A DNA stretch of 64,000 bases, from NCBI GenBank assembly GCA_963723565.1, contig CAVRRH010000007.1, forward strand, positions 92,329 to 156,328, given 5' to 3'. The position numbers and the translations under genes are program-made. Origin of the DNA: an uncultured Gemmatimonadales bacterium (lineage in GTDB: Bacteria > Gemmatimonadota > Gemmatimonadetes > Gemmatimonadales > GWC2-71-9). Positions 25,915-49,443 of the stretch are shown one piece after another. Each line of letters opens with the position of its first letter. Within the stretch, counting starts at the first letter, position 1. The notes below the pieces were generated by a model. The model was given only the letters and a program-made list of their open reading frames with translations, did not search any database and was not told the origin of the DNA.

Positions 25915-26271
25915 CTACTCGGCAAGAAGCTCGATCCGCGCGACATCGGCACCATCGCCCACCCGGTGCCCCATCTTGAGAATGCGGGTGTATCCACCCG
26001 GACGGGCCGCGAAACGAGGACCAATCTCGGAGAACAGCCGACCGAGGATCTCACGATCCTTGATCCGGCGTCCTACCAGCCGGCGGGAGTGCAGATCGCC
26101 GCGGCGAGCCATGGTGATGAGCTTCTCGGCGAACGGCCGCAGCTCTTTCGCCTTGGCCTCGGTCGTGATGACCCGGCCGTGGGCGAAGAGGCTCGTAGCC
26201 ATGTTGTTCAGCATCGCCCGCTTATGACTCGACGTACGGGAGAGCTGGCGACCCTTGGCCCGGTGCCGCAT
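25915..26271 (-). CDS. rplQ: 50S ribosomal protein L17
   Basis: MRHRAKGRQLSRTSSHKRAMLNNMATSLF..., 118 aa. Confidence 0.95.
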   Translation of the reverse strand: MRHRAKGRQLSRTSSHKRAMLNNMATSLFAHGRVITTEAKAKELRPFAEKLITMARRGDLHSRRLVGRRIKDREILGRLFSEIGPRFAARPGGYTRILKMGHRVGDGADVARIELLAE

Positions 26272-27335
26272 TAAAGCGCCTCTCCCGCCCCGGTAGAGGG
26301 CTGCACCACCGGAGCAACTCCCGGCCGCACAATCCGCAGCTCCAGGTCGATCTCCTCGAAGCCCATACCGAAGTTGAGCCCCTCGCGCTGCAGCAGCTCC
26401 GCAATTTCACTCAGCGCCTTCTCGCCCACGTTCTTGACCTTGAGAAGGTCGTCCTCGGAGAACTCCACCAGGTCCTTGAGGGTCCGGATGTTCGAGTTCT
26501 TGAGTGAGTTGAGTGAGCGCACTGACAAGCCGAAGTCGTCGATCGGGCGGCTCAGCCGCTGGCGCAGGTTACTGCCGGCACCGCCACCCGCGGTGGCTCC
26601 GGCATCGCGCATGGTCGGCACCTTGCCGAAATCCACGAAGTACTGGAAGTGCACCTGGGCCAGGGCGGCGGCGTAGGCGATGGCGTCTTCCGGCGTGATC
26701 GTGCCGTTGGTCTCGACCGACACGGTGAGCCGGTCGTAGTCGGTGCGCTGTCCAACTCGGGTTTCCGCCACCGTGAAGTTGGCCCGCCGGACCGGATTGT
26801 AGATGGCGTCGATGCGAACCAGATCGATCGGTAGCGACCGGTCGGCCGGGTGCATCTCGGCTTCCACGTACCCTCGACCTTTGTTGACGTAGAGCTCCAT
26901 GGTCACGTCGCGGTCGTCCTGCAGCGTGAACAGGAGATGATCGGGATTCTTGACCGACACGGAGCCATGCTCCTGGATGTCGCGCGCATGGACCGGTCCT
27001 GCGCCCTCGCGGCGGATGTGCAGCACCGCGTCGTCAACGTCCTCGGCCAGCACCAGGGTCAGCGCCTTGAGACGCTGCACGATCTGATGCACGTCCTCCA
27101 GTACGCCCTGCACGGTCTGATGCTCGTGCACCACCCCGTCGAGCCGGAACCCCCACACCGCGCTCCCGCGGAGCGACGAAAGGAGAAGACGGCGCAGCGA
27201 GTTGCCCAAGGTGTAGCCGAAGCCCCGCTCCAGCGGCTGGAGGCGGAACTCGGCGGCATTCGGATTGTCGTCCCGCTTCGTCATCTCGACGAGATGCGGA
27301 CGAACCAGGCCAGTCAGGTCAATGGTCATGGTCAC
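26271..27335 (-). CDS. rpoA: DNA-directed RNA polymerase subunit alpha
   Basis: Intact 354 aa ORF with an N-terminal dimerisation domain and a C-terminal domain (LSVRSLNSLKNSNIRTLKDLV). Confidence 0.96.
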   Translation of the reverse strand: MTMTIDLTGLVRPHLVEMTKRDDNPNAAEFRLQPLERGFGYTLGNSLRRLLLSSLRGSAVWGFRLDGVVHEHQTVQGVLEDVHQIVQRLKALTLVLAEDVDDAVLHIRREGAGPVHARDIQEHGSVSVKNPDHLLFTLQDDRDVTMELYVNKGRGYVEAEMHPADRSLPIDLVRIDAIYNPVRRANFTVAETRVGQRTDYDRLTVSVETNGTITPEDAIAYAAALAQVHFQYFVDFGKVPTMRDAGATAGGGAGSNLRQRLSRPIDDFGLSVRSLNSLKNSNIRTLKDLVEFSEDDLLKVKNVGEKALSEIAELLQREGLNFGMGFEEIDLELRIVRPGVAPVVQPSTGAGEAL

Positions 27336-27967
27336 TTCGAGTAGAGCTCGACGATGAGCTGTTCTTGTGCGTTGATCGGGATCGTTTCCCGGGTAGGCCG
27401 CTCCAGCAGCCGGCCCGTTGCCTTCTCGTTATCTACGGAGAGCCACGACACCGGCTGGCCCCGAGCGGCGCTCTCCTGCGCCAGCTTGACCGCCACCAGC
27501 TCGCGGCTGCCCGACGCCATCCGGACCTCTTCGCCCTTGGTCACCCGGTAGGAGGCGACATCCACCCGGCCGCCGTTGACTTCGACGTGCCCGTGGCTGA
27601 TCAGCTGGCGTGCCGCCTTGCGGCTGGAGGCGAAGCCGAGGCGATACACGATGTTGTCGAGCCGGGTCTCGAGGGCCACCAGGAGATTGGTGCCCTTCAC
27701 GCCTGGCTCACCGGTGACGCGCTCGAAGGTGTTGCGGAACTGCTGCTCGGAGAGCCCGTACATCCGCTTGACCTTCTGCTTCTCGCGCATCTGCTTGGCG
27801 TACTCGGACGTCTTACGCGGGCGGCCGCCGCTCTGGCCATGCTGGCCCGGCGGATAGGCGCGGCGCTCGACCGGGCACTTTTCGGTCAGACACTTGGTGC
27901 CCTTGAGAAACAGCTTGGTCCCCTCGCGGCGGCACAGCCGGCAGCTCGGTCCCACGTATCGGCTCAT
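27332..27967 (-). CDS. rpsD: 30S ribosomal protein S4
   Basis: MSRYVGPSCRLCRREGTKLFLKGTKC... starts at an internal ATG of ORF 27332..28231. Confidence 0.94.
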   Translation of the reverse strand: MSRYVGPSCRLCRREGTKLFLKGTKCLTEKCPVERRAYPPGQHGQSGGRPRKTSEYAKQMREKQKVKRMYGLSEQQFRNTFERVTGEPGVKGTNLLVALETRLDNIVYRLGFASSRKAARQLISHGHVEVNGGRVDVASYRVTKGEEVRMASGSRELVAVKLAQESAARGQPVSWLSVDNEKATGRLLERPTRETIPINAQEQLIVELYSK

Positions 27968-27969
27968 GG

Positions 27970-28371
27970 TTAGACCCGCCGCTTCTTCGGCGGACGGCAG
28001 CCGTTGTGCGGAATTGGAGTGACGTCGCGAATAGAGACTACCCTGAGCCCCACCGATGCGAGGGCCTGAATGGCGGACTCGCGACCGCTCCCAGGACCTT
28101 GCACCCGCACGTGCACTCGGCGGACACCCAGGTTCATGGCTTCGCGCCCGCAGTTCTCCGCCGCCACGGTGGCCGCGAATGGGGTCGACTTCTTGGAGCC
28201 TTTGAATCCGGCCTTGCCGGCCGACCCCCACGCCAGGGTGTTGCCCCGCAGGTCGGTGATGGTGATGAGCAGGTTGTTGAACGTAGCCGAGATGTGGGCG
28301 ATGCCCTCGGACTCGACGACTTTCTTCGATTTCTTGACGCTGGGCGCCTTCGCCGGAGCGGGAGCAGTCAT
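27970..28371 (-). CDS. rpsK: 30S ribosomal protein S11
   Basis: 133 aa ORF: [17 protein letters not shown]...[16 protein letters not shown]. Confidence 0.95.
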
Positions 28372-28752
28372 TTACTTCTTCGTCACTTTCTTCTTGCCGG
28401 CGATGGCACGCCGTGGACCCTTCTTGGTCCGGGCGTTGGTGTGGGTCCGCTGGCCGCGAACTGGCAGACCTCTGCGATGCCGAATGCCGCGATAGCTCCC
28501 GATATCCATCAGGCGCTTGATGTTCATGGCGACTTCGGTGCGGAGGGCACCCTCGACTTTGACCGAGCGCTCGATCATCTGGCGGAGTCGGGCGACCTCG
28601 GAGTCCGAGAGGTCACGAACCCGCGTATCGGGGCTCACCCCGGTCTCGCCGAGGATACGGCTGCTGGTGGGCCGGCCGATGCCGAAGATGTAGGTGAGCG
28701 CGATCTCCACCCGCTTCTCGCGTGGAAGGTCCACGCCCGCGATGCGTGCCAT
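28372..28752 (-). CDS. rpsM: 30S ribosomal protein S13
   Basis: [26 protein letters not shown]... starts at an internal ATG of ORF 28372..28842. Confidence 0.94.
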
Positions 28753-28754
28753 GA

Positions 28755-28871
28755 TCAGCCTTGCCGCTGTTTGTGCTTGGGATTGCGCTTGCAGATGATG
28801 CGGACGACGCCTTGTCTCTTGATGACTTTGCAGTGCTCGCAAATCGGCTTCACGCTGGAACGAACCTTCAC
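28755..28871 (-). CDS. rpmJ: 50S ribosomal protein L36
   Basis: A GTG start at 28871 follows GGAGAG. (V)[37 protein letters not shown], 38 aa. This is only the tail of ORF 28755..29531. Confidence 0.9.
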
Positions 28872-43837: not shown

Positions 43838-44486
43838 CTACCCAAGCCGGTACGCCCCGGTCAGGAAAGGATTGGTGAGCCGCTCGATGCCGATGGTCGT
43901 GTCCGGACCATGCCCGCTGTGAACGACCGTCGAGTCGGGCAACGAGAGCAGTTGGGACTGGATGCTTGCCATGAGGGTAGCCGCGTCGCCACCGGGCAGG
44001 TCGGTCCGGCCTACCGACCCGTTGAACAGCACGTCGCCGCCGAAGACCATACCCTCACCCACGAAAGCCGACGCTGCCAGGCGAATGCCCGGGGGTGAAC
44101 CGCACCGTGAACTCGAAGCTCCCTACCTTGAGAACCTGACCGGGCTGTAGCTCCCGGTCCGGAGCCGGAGGCCTCTCCAACTGCATGCCGACCCAGCCGC
44201 CATACTGAGGCAGGGCGTCGTAGATGGGACGGTCGAGCGGATGAAGGTGAATCGGCACCCCGGTGGCGGCGTGCACCGCCCCCACACCGATGATGTGATC
44301 GATATGTGCGTGGGTGAGCCAGATGGCTCGCAGCGACCAGGCGCGGCTGTCCAGCTCGGCGAGAAACATCGCCGGCTCCTCGCCCGGATCGATGATTACC
44401 GCCTCCCGGGTGCGGCGATCGGCGACCAGGTAACAGTTCTCCGCAAACTGACCGTTGGGCAGCGATACGACTTCCAGGTCAGACAC
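43838..44486 (-). CDS. MBL-fold hydrolase (GloB/hydroxyacylglutathione hydrolase-like); one frame break at the A run 44064..44066
   Basis: WLTHAHIDHIIG, TPGHSPGSVGF / VGEGMVFGGDVLFNGSVGRTDLPGG, HSGHG. Confidence 0.82.
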
Positions 44487-45447
44487 CGACCTGGGCCTTC
44501 GATTCGAGCCGGCTCTTGCGATCGGTCAAATACTTCTCGGCGGCGATCGCCGCTGTAGTGGCATCACCGACGGCGGTCGTGATCTGCCGGGTGAGCTGAG
44601 CCCTGACGTCCCCGGCTGCGAAGAGGCCGGGAATGGAGGTCATCATTCGATCATCGGTGATCAGGTAGCCGTTAGGATCGTGCTCGGCATGCTGCTTGAC
44701 CAGTCCAGTATTGGGCTGGAAGCCGATGAAGACGAACGCCCCGGTCGCGTCGAGCACCTGCTCCGCTCCGGTTACCGTGTCCACCAGCTCGATCCAGCGC
44801 AGACCCTGTGGGCCACCTATGAACTCACGCACCCGCTTATTCCAGATCACCTCGATCTTGGGGTTGGAAAAGAGCCGCTCCTGCAGAATCTTGGACGCGC
44901 GGAACTGATCTCGACGGTGAATGACATACACTTTCTCGGCATAGCGGGTCAGGTAGTCCGCCTCTTCTACCGCGGCGTCGCCCCCGCCGATCACCGCGAC
45001 GGTCTCCCCCTTGAAGAAGGCGCCGTCGCAGACGGCACAGTACGAAACACCCCGGCCGGCATACTCCAGCTCGCCTGGAACATTGAGCTTTGTCGGAGTT
45101 CCGCCGGCAGTGAGGATGACGGTCGGCGCTTCATAGACCTTCCCCATGGCGGTGGCGACCTCGAAGATCCCGTCGTCTCGCCGGACGATCGCCTCCACCG
45201 CGTCCTGCCGGATATCGGCGCCGAACTTGACGGCGTGAGCGGTCATCAAGTCGGCCAGCTGGCGCCCTAGAACGTGTTCGAAACCAGGGTAGTCGTCGAT
45301 CCACTCGGTGTTGAGTAGCTCACCTCCGGGGACTCCCCGCTCCAGGAGGACCGAACGCAGCAAACCCCGCCCCGAATACATGGCGGCGCAGAGACCCGCC
45401 GGTCCACCGCCCACGATGATGACATCCAACTCCTCGCTACGGATCAT
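44479..45447 (-). CDS. trxB: Thioredoxin-disulfide reductase
   Basis: Intact 322 aa ORF: VIIVGGGPAGL, redox centre CAVCDG, GGGDAAVEEA, GLFAAGDV. Confidence 0.95.
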   Translation of the reverse strand: MIRSEELDVIIVGGGPAGLCAAMYSGRGLLRSVLLERGVPGGELLNTEWIDDYPGFEHVLGRQLADLMTAHAVKFGADIRQDAVEAIVRRDDGIFEVATAMGKVYEAPTVILTAGGTPTKLNVPGELEYAGRGVSYCAVCDGAFFKGETVAVIGGGDAAVEEADYLTRYAEKVYVIHRRDQFRASKILQERLFSNPKIEVIWNKRVREFIGGPQGLRWIELVDTVTGAEQVLDATGAFVFIGFQPNTGLVKQHAEHDPNGYLITDDRMMTSIPGLFAAGDVRAQLTRQITTAVGDATTAAIAAEKYLTDRKSRLESKAQVGV

Positions 45448-45663: not shown

Positions 45664-46425
45664 CTACCCTAAATGCAGCAGACTCGCCGCCCCGTGACAG
45701 CTCGACACCGTGCCGACCAGCACGTCCACCGGTGACCGCGCCCGGCCCGCACTCTCTACCACTGCATCGCCCGCTAGAACGGCACTCACATCGAACATCC
45801 CGACACCAAACACCCTGTGCTCACAGACGAAGAGCACGGGACCGGCAGTTGGGTGGGCGTCGCTTAACCTGCGGGCCAGGCCCTCCATCGCATCCGCCAT
45901 CTCCCAGGTGCGGGGAGCCCGGATGACCGGGCATATGGCGGGCTCGATGCAGTGGGTGGGGCAGGTCCAGTCCGCAAAGGAGATGTAGCGCGTGCCATCC
46001 GGGGCACTCGTGTCATAGGGCGTGCCCGGCCCCATTGGAACAGGTCGCGTTTCTACGAGACGGCCCGGCCACCGATCACGGGCACGGCGGACCAGCCACT
46101 CGTACATGAGGTGCGGCATGAGAGGAGATGGGACGATGGCGTCGGGAGGGGCACCCGAAGGAGATGGCGAGGCGCCGCCGAGGTAGGCGTCGAAGAAATC
46201 ACCCCATTCCCGGGTCACCAGTTGGCGGGTGTCGTCTTCTCCCAGCTCGCGAGCAACCTGACAGGCCGGGTTGCGGTCCACGATCAGCAGCCTGCGGTAG
46301 GCCGCCCTGCCGCGGGCCCGAGCGCGCTCGAGCTGGCCGGCGTAGAAGCTGCCGTAGCAACCTCCGCCGACGATCACGACATCGCGGAAGCGGATGCTAT
46401 CGGATGAGTCGTCCACCGTCGACAA
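45664..46425 (-). CDS. Uncharacterised Rossmann-fold (GGGxYG) protein with a Cys cluster
   Basis: 253 aa ORF: VVIVGGGCYGSFYAGQL, and later WTCPTHCIEPAICPV. No family recognised. Confidence 0.5.
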   Translation of the reverse strand: MSTVDDSSDSIRFRDVVIVGGGCYGSFYAGQLERARARGRAAYRRLLIVDRNPACQVARELGEDDTRQLVTREWGDFFDAYLGGASPSPSGAPPDAIVPSPLMPHLMYEWLVRRARDRWPGRLVETRPVPMGPGTPYDTSAPDGTRYISFADWTCPTHCIEPAICPVIRAPRTWEMADAMEGLARRLSDAHPTAGPVLFVCEHRVFGVGMFDVSAVLAGDAVVESAGRARSPVDVLVGTVSSCHGAASLLHLG

Positions 46426-47128
46426 CCAGAACCTCTCCCGTCACGAAGTCACCCCCTTCCAGAAGGTATAGTAGTGCGGAGACGACATCGGACGGGCTGC
46501 CGAGACGGCGAAGCGGGGTGGCTCGCGCGAGCCGTTCCCGCTCTTCGGCGTCGTACTCCTCGGGTACCAGGACGGCCCCGGGAGCGATCGCGTTGACGGT
46601 GACTTCGGGGGCAAGGCTCCGCGCCAGCACCTTGGTGAGCATGACGACCCCGGCCTTGCTGACGGAATGTGCCGCAAACCCTGGCCAGGGCTCGAGGCCG
46701 GCAAGGTCTGCCAGGTTTACCACCTTCCCCCGAGCGGCGCGGAGCGCAGAGGCCGCGCCCTGAGTGCAGAAGAAGCCCGCCCGAAGGTTCAGGTCGTGAA
46801 CGGCGTCCCATTGCTCCGGTGTGGTCTCTTCAAAGCTGAGTCGATGCATCACGGCAGCTGAATTGACCAGCACGTCCAGCCGGCCAAACTCAGCCACAAC
46901 CCGCGCCGGCAGGGCACGCGCGGCATGAGCGTCGGTCAGGTCGGCCTCGAAACAGACGGCACGTCCGCCGGCCGCCATGATCTCCTCCCTTAGCTCGTTG
47001 GCACCGGCACTGGAAGCATGATGGTGGATGGCCAGTGTCATTCCCCGCTGGGCTAGCGCTGCGGCCATCGCACGGCCGAGCCGTCGCCCTGCGCCAGTGA
47101 CCAGGGCGACCCGGCCCTGCAGCTCCAT
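46397..47128 (-). CDS. Short-chain dehydrogenase/reductase (pteridine-reductase/FolM-like)
   Basis: VALVTGAGRRLGRAMA, NSAA, SVSKAG. 243 aa. Confidence 0.75.
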   Translation of the reverse strand: MELQGRVALVTGAGRRLGRAMAAALAQRGMTLAIHHHASSAGANELREEIMAAGGRAVCFEADLTDAHAARALPARVVAEFGRLDVLVNSAAVMHRLSFEETTPEQWDAVHDLNLRAGFFCTQGAASALRAARGKVVNLADLAGLEPWPGFAAHSVSKAGVVMLTKVLARSLAPEVTVNAIAPGAVLVPEEYDAEERERLARATPLRRLGSPSDVVSALLYLLEGGDFVTGEVLVVDGGRLIR

Positions 47129-47865
47129 CAGAGCGGTCCAGCGGCGATCGGGGAGATCGGGAGAATCTGTCCGGTAGTCGCGGTATCCGAGCGCGCGAGG
47201 GACATCACCCCATCGGTGATCTCCTGCATCTCGACATACTGCGCGTCGCCCTCTCCCACCGCCGCGACGTTATCCACTGTGCGTACCATGGCCGGAGCGA
47301 CGGCGTTGACCCGGACGTGCCGGTCCTGCAGCTCCAGCGCCAGGCTCCGGGTGAATCCGGCGACGGCGGCCTTGGCGGCCGAGTACACAGCCATGGGGCT
47401 CTGCGGATTGAAGTAGGCGATCGAGGAAAAGTTGATGATGCAGCCACGGGTGCGGGTTAACGCCTCGATGGCGGCCTGGGAGACCACAACCGCGGTCTTG
47501 AGGTTGATGGCGATCTCGCGGTCGAGCGCCACAACGGTGGTTTCGCCAATTGGGCCGAAGGTGGTCAGCCCGCCCGCCACGTTGACTACCACGTCCAGGC
47601 GGCCGAAGTGCTTGAGGGCAGTCTCCACGGCGAGAGCCGCGATATCCGGCTCGGTCAGGTCGCCCGCACAGGGCCTGACGTCCACACCTTGGGCGGCAAA
47701 CTCGCGTACCCGCTCGGCGACACCGACGGCATTGAGATCGCAGGCAACGATCTTGGCTCCGGCCTTTCCGAACGCGAGCGCGACGGCGTTCCCGATCTGG
47801 CCGGCCCGGCCCACACCGGTCACCAGCACAACCTTCCCACGAAAATCGAACCGGGCGGCGCTCAT
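47128..47865 (-). CDS. Short-chain dehydrogenase/reductase
   Basis: VVLVTGVGRAGQIGNAVA, NVAG, YSAAKAA. 245 aa. Confidence 0.75.
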   Translation of the reverse strand: MSAARFDFRGKVVLVTGVGRAGQIGNAVALAFGKAGAKIVACDLNAVGVAERVREFAAQGVDVRPCAGDLTEPDIAALAVETALKHFGRLDVVVNVAGGLTTFGPIGETTVVALDREIAINLKTAVVVSQAAIEALTRTRGCIINFSSIAYFNPQSPMAVYSAAKAAVAGFTRSLALELQDRHVRVNAVAPAMVRTVDNVAAVGEGDAQYVEMQEITDGVMSLARSDTATTGQILPISPIAAGPL

Positions 47866-48305
47866 GCGGATCCCAGGCTTTCGAGGATGATGGCGGCGCC
47901 AGGCGCACCGGCCTGGGTGTAGAGCACGGTGCCGTCGCGGTCGATCAGGCAGACCGAACGTGCGATCCCGGGCACGATCGGCCTGAGCGAGCCATAGGCG
48001 CCGCTGATCGCCCGGTCCGGGTCGGACAGCAACGGGAACGGCAGCCCCAGCTTCTCGGCATACGCCGTGTGTCGCTCGACGGACGCCGGATTCACGCCGA
48101 AGGGCCTGATGTCGTGGTCGGTGTAGGCTTGAATCTCATCGCGCACGGCGGAGAGTTGGCGGTTTCAGCCAGGTGTGTTGTTACCGGGATAAAACACCAG
48201 CAGCACGCGTGACTCGTCGAGGAGCCGGCGAAGATTGTATGTCCGCCCGTCCGAGGCGGCGGCCGTGAAGTCCGGCGCCACGCTGCCTGGTTGGAGCAGA
48301 CTCAT
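47862..48305 (-). CDS. bcp: Bcp/PrxQ-type peroxiredoxin with in-frame TGA (48165..48167) at the peroxidatic Cys position; candidate Sec codon
   Basis: ORFs 48165..48359 and 47862..48146 share one frame. The joined translation is MSLLQPGSVAPDFTAAASDGRTYNLRRLLDESRVLLVFYPGNNTPG-TGA-NRQLSAVRDEIQAY...GLPFPLLSDPD... Confidence 0.8.
48132..48157 (-). other. SECIS-like stem-loop 8-33 nt downstream of the in-frame UGA
   Basis: The mRNA AACUCUCCGCCGUGCGCGAUGAGAUU was hand-folded into 9 bp in two helices with a bulge and an apical loop CGUGC containing GU. Confidence 0.4.
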
Positions 48306-49171
48306 GACACCGCGCGACTCAGCGAGCGGGCCTGAAACTCGTCCAAGCGGTCCAGCCACTCTCGCGGGACTGCCTGGGAGCCGATAGTGCCATGGGTCAC
48401 TCCCGGCTCCGGGTCACCGTGCCAGTCGCTGCCACCGGTCCGGAGCAAGCCCAGCTTGAGCGCGATATCGGTAAGCCGGGCGCGGAGATCGGGATCGTGA
48501 CTGGGATGACGCGTCTCCACCGCATCCAGGCCCTCTCCCTTGAGCCGCTCGATGAAGGCCCGGGTGCCCCGTTCCTTCAGGTGAGCCACAGACACCAATC
48601 CGCCGGCCTGGTGGACCAGCTCCGCGATGACCCGAAACGCGGGCAGCGTCTTCTCCACGAAGGCCGGGCGGCCCCGACCCAGGAACCGGTCGAAGGCGTC
48701 GCCCAGATCGATGGCGCCGCCGTGCCGCACTATGGCGCGGGCGACGTGCGGCCGGCCCACGGCCCCACCTCCCGATTCATGCAGCACGTGCTCGAACGAG
48801 AGCTCCACCCCCAGCCGCTGAAGCTGTTCCACCATTGCCTGCGCCCGGCGCACTCGGTCCGCGCGGCTGCGCTCCAGAAACGCATCCAGCGCGGCCGAGT
48901 CGGAGGGTAGAAAGTACCCCAGCACGTGCATCTCGCCCCAGGGGGCCGCGGCCGAGAACTCGCACCCGCCGATGACCCGAACGCCGAAGCGCTCGCCAGC
49001 CGCGAGCGCTTCGGGTATGCCACCCAGGGTGTCGTGATCGGTGAGCGCGATAGCGCGGAGGCCGGCCCCCAATGCCCGCTTTACCACGGCCTCGGGAGCA
49101 AGACTCCCATCCGAGGCGGTCGAGTGCACGTGCAGATCGATGGTTTCCACAGGCTCGATCGCCTGGTCCAT
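48302..49171 (-). CDS. PHP-domain phosphoesterase (TrpH/YciV-like)
   Basis: IDLHVHSTASDGS, ALTDHDT, HVLGY, AHL. Intact 289 aa ORF. Confidence 0.85.
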   Translation of the reverse strand: MDQAIEPVETIDLHVHSTASDGSLAPEAVVKRALGAGLRAIALTDHDTLGGIPEALAAGERFGVRVIGGCEFSAAAPWGEMHVLGYFLPSDSAALDAFLERSRADRVRRAQAMVEQLQRLGVELSFEHVLHESGGGAVGRPHVARAIVRHGGAIDLGDAFDRFLGRGRPAFVEKTLPAFRVIAELVHQAGGLVSVAHLKERGTRAFIERLKGEGLDAVETRHPSHDPDLRARLTDIALKLGLLRTGGSDWHGDPEPGVTHGTIGSQAVPREWLDRLDEFQARSLSRAVS

Positions 49172-49176
49172 GGGGC

Positions 49177-49443
49177 TCAGCGGCGATATCCCATCTCGGG
49201 AGCGGTCCAGGATGGTTGAGAGTGAGCCAGCAGATCACGCAGTTCCTGATCGCTCAGCTGGCTGAGCGAGAGCTCCCGGCTCTTGGCGCCGAGCGGGGAA
49301 TAGCGGGCCACGCGCTGCTCGCGATCGGGCCCGACGCCCCGAGTGAAGATGAGGCCGAACTCGTCCTTCACGTACTGTGTGATCCGTCCGCTGACGGCCA
49401 CTTCCCACTGCTCGCCGTCGGCGGCGATGATTCGTCTGGGCAT
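49177..49443 (-). CDS. Hypothetical protein, 88 aa
   Basis: An ORF packed between the E2 stop and the PHP start. No motif recognised. Confidence 0.4.
   Translation of the reverse strand: MPRRIIAADGEQWEVAVSGRITQYVKDEFGLIFTRGVGPDREQRVARYSPLGAKSRELSLSQLSDQELRDLLAHSQPSWTAPEMGYRR

Follow-up and report, generated by a model that had tools for sequence, protein, structure and literature searches.

We analyzed a stretch of 64,000 nucleotides (nt) from an uncultured Gemmatimonadales bacterium (contig CAVRRH010000007.1 of assembly GCA_963723565.1; the whole stretch is called the window below), in which a gene for a Bcp/PrxQ-like peroxiredoxin on the minus strand contains an in-frame UGA codon where the catalytic cysteine is expected. 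It is very likely that this UGA (48167..48165) encodes selenocysteine (Sec). The same TGA was found in 130 of 130 orthologous sequences (window included), and the synonymous sites over a hairpin lying just downstream, which resembles a bacterial selenocysteine insertion sequence (SECIS), do not vary; judging from the sequence comparison, this combination is beyond chance. The elements in question are the following, hairpin positions being numbered from the first nucleotide after the UGA.

47862..48305, minus strand: Sec-peroxiredoxin gene, complete, 147 codons plus stop, predicted to encode a Bcp/PrxQ-like 1-Sec peroxiredoxin
48165..48167, minus strand: in-frame UGA at codon 47, proposed to specify Sec; peroxidatic residue of the motif P40-x3-T44-x2-U47
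48133..48156, minus strand: SECIS-like hairpin (+9 to +32), from RNAfold, RNAalifold and conservation

The peroxiredoxin gene and its active site

Read on the minus strand from 48305 to 47862, the frame gives MSLLQPGSVAPDFTAAASDGRTYNLRRLLDESRVLLVFYPGNNTPG, a stop, then NRQLSAVRDEIQAY and so on to a final GSA and the terminal stop, the TGA at 48167..48165 being its sole internal stop. A preliminary description of this DNA had stated that two open reading frames (ORFs), 48165..48359 and 47862..48146, are in the same frame, separated only by the TGA and six sense codons, and that the break is therefore not a frameshift. Both points held when frame and coordinates were re-read: the two ORFs share one frame with a single internal TGA, and between them stand this TGA and the codons AAC CGC CAA CTC TCC GCC, followed by the GTG (48146..48144) that gene callers choose as the start of the second ORF. 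At the outer ends, the ATG of the peroxiredoxin gene (48305..48303) overlaps the stop of an upstream PHP-domain gene (ATGA), and its stop TGA (47864..47862) overlaps the ATG of a downstream short-chain dehydrogenase (SDR) gene; the PHP-peroxiredoxin-SDR layout is operon-like.

With a Cys placed at the TGA, the joined protein matched the Pfam family AhpC-TSA (PF00578) over residues 7-129, covering positions 2-123 of the 124 in the profile (E 1.9e-29, 102.6 bits against a cut-off of 26). The best matches among solved structures were the Bcp proteins 3drn and 5enu. In the PDB alignments the TGA column lies opposite the peroxidatic Cys (FYPGNNTPG-U in the window protein, FYPKDNTPG-C in 5enu), which agrees with the position given to the TGA in the preliminary description. 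Among 127 Sec-type orthologues, that is, those with the TGA, P40, T44 and R116 are each at least 95% conserved. The resolving Cys had been reported as missing, and this extends to the orthologues: the +5 position, where classical PrxQ relatives have that Cys, is Ser in 130 of 130 Sec-type sequences. No other Cys is conserved in the Sec type (C119 of the window protein is present in 36 of 127). Because of the Ser at +5 and the lack of any other conserved Cys, the protein should, as far as its sequence tells, act as a 1-Sec (1-Cys-like) peroxiredoxin recycled by an external thiol.

Sec-containing peroxiredoxins are not a new class, as had been acknowledged from the start. Those with a TxxU motif form an established bacterial selenoprotein family conserved around PxxxTxxU (PMC13188914). 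In a survey of more than 5200 genomes it was the seventh most widespread family, with 78 organisms (PMC5029168, Table 3). From the Sargasso Sea, 43 members were assigned to COG1225 (PMC1088965, Table 1; the family is also in Table 3), and published members have been reported mostly from anaerobes (PMC1794560). The window protein would have in common with this family (TxxU; PF00578; COG1225) the fold, Sec at the peroxidatic position of PxxxTxxU, and a SECIS hairpin right after the UGA with a G in a small apical loop. Its membership in this subfamily is suggested solely by the label COG1225, the COG of the Bcp group.

PrxU of Eubacterium acidaminophilum (NF040737) is cited in PMC13188914 as an experimentally characterized Sec-peroxiredoxin. 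It resembles the window protein in having Sec in place of the peroxidatic Cys and is thioredoxin-dependent, but it belongs to a different subfamily, with a profile of 233 positions against 147 residues in the window protein. The Cys-type Bcp/PrxQ proteins (PRK09437; 3drn, 5enu) share the motif FYPxxxTPG(C/U) and the catalytic Arg with the window protein; they differ in having Cys rather than Sec, and in the classical members the resolving Cys stands at +5 where the window protein has Ser. The top NCBIfam match was PRK09437 (Bcp), at 71.4 bits under an equivalog cut-off of 140, and the PrxU model NF040737 gave 37.9 bits under a cut-off of 270. On these profile scores, the window protein is not a PrxU, and the NCBI models offer no specific place for it. 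Scores below both cut-offs explain the truncated database entries described in the next section.

Conservation of the UGA codon and of the downstream hairpin

The orthologue set was made up of the window, the 80 best species-representative genomes and 49 metagenome contigs, giving 130 TGA sequences, 124 of them distinct over 105 nt. The 49 contigs came from a scan seeded with Cys-type relatives, which also gave 30 Cys-type sequences. All of the 80 genomes, which are 56-94% identical to the window at the amino acid (aa) level and are nearly all metagenome-assembled genomes (MAGs) of Gemmatimonadales or Gemmatimonadota, have TGA at the peroxidatic codon, and none has a Cys codon there. The frame is unbroken across the TGA in all 130 sequences and the orthologues align over residues 1-146. 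Both sides of the TGA are equally conserved, with a median identity to the window of 65% over the 46 residues before it and 56% over the 100 after it. The preliminary description had counted close homologues with Cys and without the hairpin as a point that would speak against Sec; all the close homologues have the TGA and the hairpin. As judged from these alignments, neither a sequencing error, nor a pseudogene, nor two independent genes could yield such a pattern.

The gene is seldom seen whole in protein databases. About 100 of the best 120 matches listed in a protein search were 94-aa C-terminal fragments with 80-95% identity. Their coverage of the query is limited to its C-terminal 63%, the part that gene callers predict after the TGA, so that the expected splitting of the gene by standard callers was indeed found. 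Among the matches listed in a search of 5.8 billion protein clusters, there was no full-length relative above 66% identity.

Two contigs with the Gemmatimonadales-type Sec-peroxiredoxin gene, L024 (DATADW010000224.1) and L039 (JBLMWC010000150.1), were found in MAGs labelled Acidimicrobiia and Bacillota. The L039 contig also shows the surrounding cluster, and for both contigs mis-binning is more probable than horizontal transfer.

The hairpin is formed by the pairs (A/G)9-U32, U11-A31, C12-G30, U13-A29, C14-G28, C15-G25, G16-C24 and C17-G23, which enclose the apical loop C18 G19 U20 G21 C22 (CGUGC, 48147..48143), A26 and Y27 being a bulge. Positions 10-26 (48155..48139), CUCUCCGCCGUGCGCGA, are identical in 130 of 130 sequences. 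Over the same set, the entropy at the fourfold wobble sites of codons +5 to +8 (TCC GCC GTG CGC) is 0.00 bits, against 0.9-1.6 bits for the fourfold codons on either side. The wobble position of codon +9 (GAY) is free again (0.98 bits) and is exactly the bulged Y27. The minimum free energy structure given by RNAfold for the window contains every pair from U11-A31 to C17-G23 with the loop CGUGC, and RNAalifold, run on 24 representative sequences, independently gave the same core from C12-G30 inward. On the structure named above, 97.4% of the cells are paired and five of the eight pairs never vary. A compensatory change from C12-G30 to G12-C30 is present in L043, L051 and L134, and either A9 or G9 pairs with U32. 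Of the hairpin as first drawn, the pairs from 9-32 inward and the conserved CGUGC loop were thus recovered; the outermost pair, A8-U33, was not, as position 33 varies.

Bacterial SECIS elements are in-frame hairpins whose start lies ~11 nt downstream of the UGA and whose small apical loop, ~16-37 nt downstream of it, carries a G or GU. The geometry of the window hairpin appears to fit these limits, which are those of the published consensus model. The SECIS of Escherichia coli fdhF is a hairpin within the gene, starting ~11 nt downstream of the UGA, in which SelB contacts the GU of the apical loop and a bulge. The window hairpin has the same placement, a loop GU and a bulge. It differs in its shorter stem, in its bulge, which is on the 3' side (A26, Y27) where fdhF has a 5' bulged U, and in its sequence, which shows no similarity to that of fdhF; contact of the window hairpin with SelB is putative. 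A scan of 47800..48400 against Rfam (4227 families) at a permissive threshold matched no family to the hairpin. Matches to CRISPR-DR12 (E 0.089) and snaR-A in the same interval were discarded as chance only.

Two contigs of a single MAG, SMAG_U1879, carry Sec-type copies (L043 and L051), both with the G12-C30 variant. This pair could be the result of gene duplication or of strain heterogeneity within the bin.

Cys-type relatives also exist. The peroxidatic codon is TGC or TGT in the 30 more distant metagenome homologues and likewise in seven loci that represent six other Cys-type relatives. Five of the seven are long enough for the gene order to be read, and in each it is PHP-Prx-SDR-SDR. The relatives P0118, P0078 and P0039, 56-63% identical to the window protein, have this order and are orthologues for that reason; the contigs of P0070, P0104 and P0111 are too short to display it. 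The Cys-type orthologues are single proteins of 148-166 aa. In the classical PrxQ-like homologues the motif is TPG-C-T[KR]QL-C, whose second Cys, at +5, is the resolving one, and the sites that are invariant in the Sec type are free to vary in distant Cys-type homologues. The Cys-type loci L166, L164/L165, L167, L168 and L084 retain most of the hairpin sequence (~40 nt after the TGC/TGT codon), which looks like a remnant of a recent Sec-to-Cys reversion. Its core is identical in L166, the loop GU is lost in L084, and divergence at the wobble sites is seen in L169, L170 and L136. The window gene order is seen in L164, L165 and L168, the contigs of L166, L167 and L084 being too short. A rough neighbor-joining tree combined with parsimony placed Cys at the root, with at least five Sec/Cys switches and ten Cys-type sequences nested in the smallest clade that holds all the Sec-type ones. 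Crude as this tree is, it suggests repeated Sec-to-Cys reversion leaving decaying "fossil" hairpins.

Reading of the UGA codon

The reading of the UGA as Sec is favored because a costly UGA and hairpin have been kept where a plain TGC would give Cys. In the mechanism that we propose, the UGA at 48167..48165 would be read as Sec during translation: the hairpin, 10-11 nt downstream, would bind SelB carrying Sec-tRNA(Sec), and SelB would bring this tRNA to the ribosome ahead of release factor 2. Translation would yield a single polypeptide of 147 residues in which Sec47 forms the peroxidatic site together with P40, T44 and R116. Peroxides are the presumed substrate, and the selenenic acid formed by their reduction would be recycled by an external thiol, since Ser replaces the resolving Cys at +5. 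The likely reductant would be a thioredoxin kept reduced by the thioredoxin-reductase-like (TrxR-like) enzyme encoded four genes downstream.

Several observations weigh against Sec. The genes selA, selB and selD and a tRNA-Sec were found neither in the window (64 kb) nor in the 160 related loci (~670 kb), which were the sequences covered by our search (tblastn with E. coli SelA, SelB and SelD, together with ARAGORN and Rfam). The literature searched links no member of the Gemmatimonadetes or Gemmatimonadota to selenocysteine, selenoproteins or selenophosphate synthetase, and neither Gemmatimonadales as hosts nor the phylum as a whole is named in the selenoproteome surveys that were searchable. 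The hairpin is weak, with an RNAalifold consensus of -4.25 kcal/mol and an RNAfold z of -1.1 (27 of 200 shuffles fold as well), and its covariation concerns one pair, probably reflects one evolutionary event, and is broken in L133. The nearest Cys-type orthologues share the conserved peptide NRQLSAVRDE, and several of them keep a near-intact hairpin (L166), so that the nucleotide conservation could be partly inherited rather than SECIS-specific. Since stability does not single out the hairpin, the argument for it is a comparative one, made mostly by its extreme conservation and the one compensatory change. The machinery search also returned a weak SelD match at 27437..27688 (E 0.46), which was set aside as noise as it falls in the rpsD/rpoA ribosomal cluster.

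The alternative that fares best is that the UGA is read through as a residue other than Sec. A SelB-like factor could bring in Cys on a tRNA(Sec)-like tRNA charged with it, or read-through could be near-cognate; the hairpin would in that case direct recoding independently of selenium. No Sec machinery was found in the window or the related loci, we found no literature recording Sec use in the phylum, and Cys works at the peroxidatic position in the orthologues, all of which would suit such a reading. SECIS-dependent systems recoding UGA to Cys have also been proposed from bacterial metagenomes. If Cys were the residue, plain TGC would suffice without any recoding apparatus, yet the TGA and hairpin are kept in 130 of 130 sequences. 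With Trp or some other residue at the peroxidatic position, the enzyme would be inactive, yet the rest of the active site is conserved. Canonical Sec-peroxiredoxins with TxxU are, moreover, common (PMC5029168, PMC1088965). Read-through without Sec is thus unlikely, and the more specific case of a UGA and hairpin working apart from the canonical selenium pathway, with a SelB-like system inserting Cys or another residue, is improbable. If true, it would be an order-wide, natural, SECIS-dependent recoding without selenium in abundant aerobic soil bacteria.

One could also take the TGA as a true stop, with a 46-aa N-terminal peptide and a 94-aa protein starting at the GTG (48146..48144), and the conserved nucleotides as a re-initiation signal. 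The GTG, seven codons after the TGA, is indeed invariant, and every gene caller starts there. The sequence before it (CUCUCCGCC) has no GGAGG-type ribosome-binding motif, and neither fragment would have the catalytic residue, yet P40, T44 and R116 are conserved. Two separate genes would not need a common frame, yet all 130 sequences keep one across the TGA, and the Cys-type orthologues are single proteins. Two products are very improbable on these grounds.

There is next to no chance that the TGA arose through faulty sequencing or assembly, or through a recent TGC/TGT-to-TGA mutation in what would then be a pseudogene. The window does have at least one apparent frameshift (43838..44525), and others were reported in the preliminary description. 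This explanation is refuted, however, by the presence of the same TGA in 129 independent sequences, taken from numerous assemblies and samples, at 56-94% protein identity, none of the 80 best genomes having a Cys codon, and by in-frame purifying selection on both halves of the gene. An alternative genetic code with UGA as a sense codon genome-wide has nothing in its favor but the in-frame TGA itself and is refuted with practical certainty: TGA ends seven of 15 well-supported genes of the window, the other 14 have no internal stop, TGA or otherwise, and the peroxiredoxin gene itself ends in TGA in 124 of 129 orthologues. Since TGA is an ordinary stop both elsewhere in the window and at the end of this gene, the recoding is limited to one site, with no change of the genetic code.

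Gene cluster and meaning of the finding

The Sec-peroxiredoxin gene is part of a conserved gene cluster, whose other members in the window are listed here.

49177..49443, minus strand: 88-aa protein between the E2 acyltransferase and PHP genes, no Pfam match; in 103 loci, 78-97% identity
48302..49171, minus strand: PHP-domain protein, upstream gene (Pfam PHP, E 1.1e-12)
47128..47865, minus strand: SDR, downstream gene (Pfam adh_short, E 3.9e-43); in 115 loci
46397..47128, minus strand: second SDR (Pfam adh_short_C2, E 3.4e-48); in 105 loci
45664..46425, minus strand: 253-aa conserved protein, no Pfam match; downstream of the SDRs in 76 loci, 68-91% identity
44479..45465 (stop-to-stop), minus strand: thioredoxin-reductase-like pyridine-nucleotide disulphide oxidoreductase (Pfam Pyr_redox_2, E 2.6e-47)

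As far as the flanks permit, the order in the Sec-type loci is E2 acyltransferase, 88-aa protein, PHP, Sec-peroxiredoxin, SDR, SDR, 253-aa protein and TrxR-like enzyme. Of the 129 Sec-type loci, 124 have the PHP gene next to the peroxiredoxin gene, as do the five Cys-type loci whose contigs reach an annotated upstream gene; the TrxR-like gene, which lies where the retrieved flanks end, was seen in 68 loci. The redox neighborhood described at first was found again here, with two SDRs, a protein without a Pfam match and a thioredoxin-reductase-like flavoprotein. The cluster fits a thioredoxin-linked redox role, and the TrxR-like enzyme could pass reducing equivalents through a thioredoxin to the peroxiredoxin.

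Two other observations were made in the window. A gene of the metallo-beta-lactamase fold (43838..44525, minus strand) is split into overlapping ORFs in different frames, 44055..44525 and 43838..44122, which match positions 3-136 and 140-196 of Pfam Lactamase_B. This looks like a frameshift, from an assembly error or in a pseudogene, and agrees with the earlier statement that the other gene breaks in the window are frameshifts. A ribosomal-protein/rpoA cluster lies at 25915..28842 (minus strand) with rpsM, rpsK, rpsD, rpoA and rplQ-like ORFs; ORF 27332..28231 has an implausibly long N-terminal extension, and the true rpsD start is probably internal.

Both the mechanism and the protein class are textbook, and how selenoproteins work is unchanged by this finding. 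What is new is the breadth, with a selenoprotein that seems to occur throughout an order of abundant soil bacteria, a near-frozen SECIS and a visible turnover of Sec and Cys. The gene appears to be mis-annotated throughout the databases, as gene callers and public databases reduce it to a nameless 94-aa fragment in seemingly every Gemmatimonadales assembly, and a family-specific model would repair many records. The Cys-type orthologues with near-intact hairpins, standing beside the Sec type, would offer a clean natural series for the switch from Sec to Cys or from Cys to Sec. If the UGA is indeed read as Sec, an abundant and mostly aerobic order of soil bacteria uses selenocysteine in a front-line peroxide-detoxifying enzyme, and this enzyme sits in a conserved redox gene cluster, which would bear on the demand for selenium in soil.

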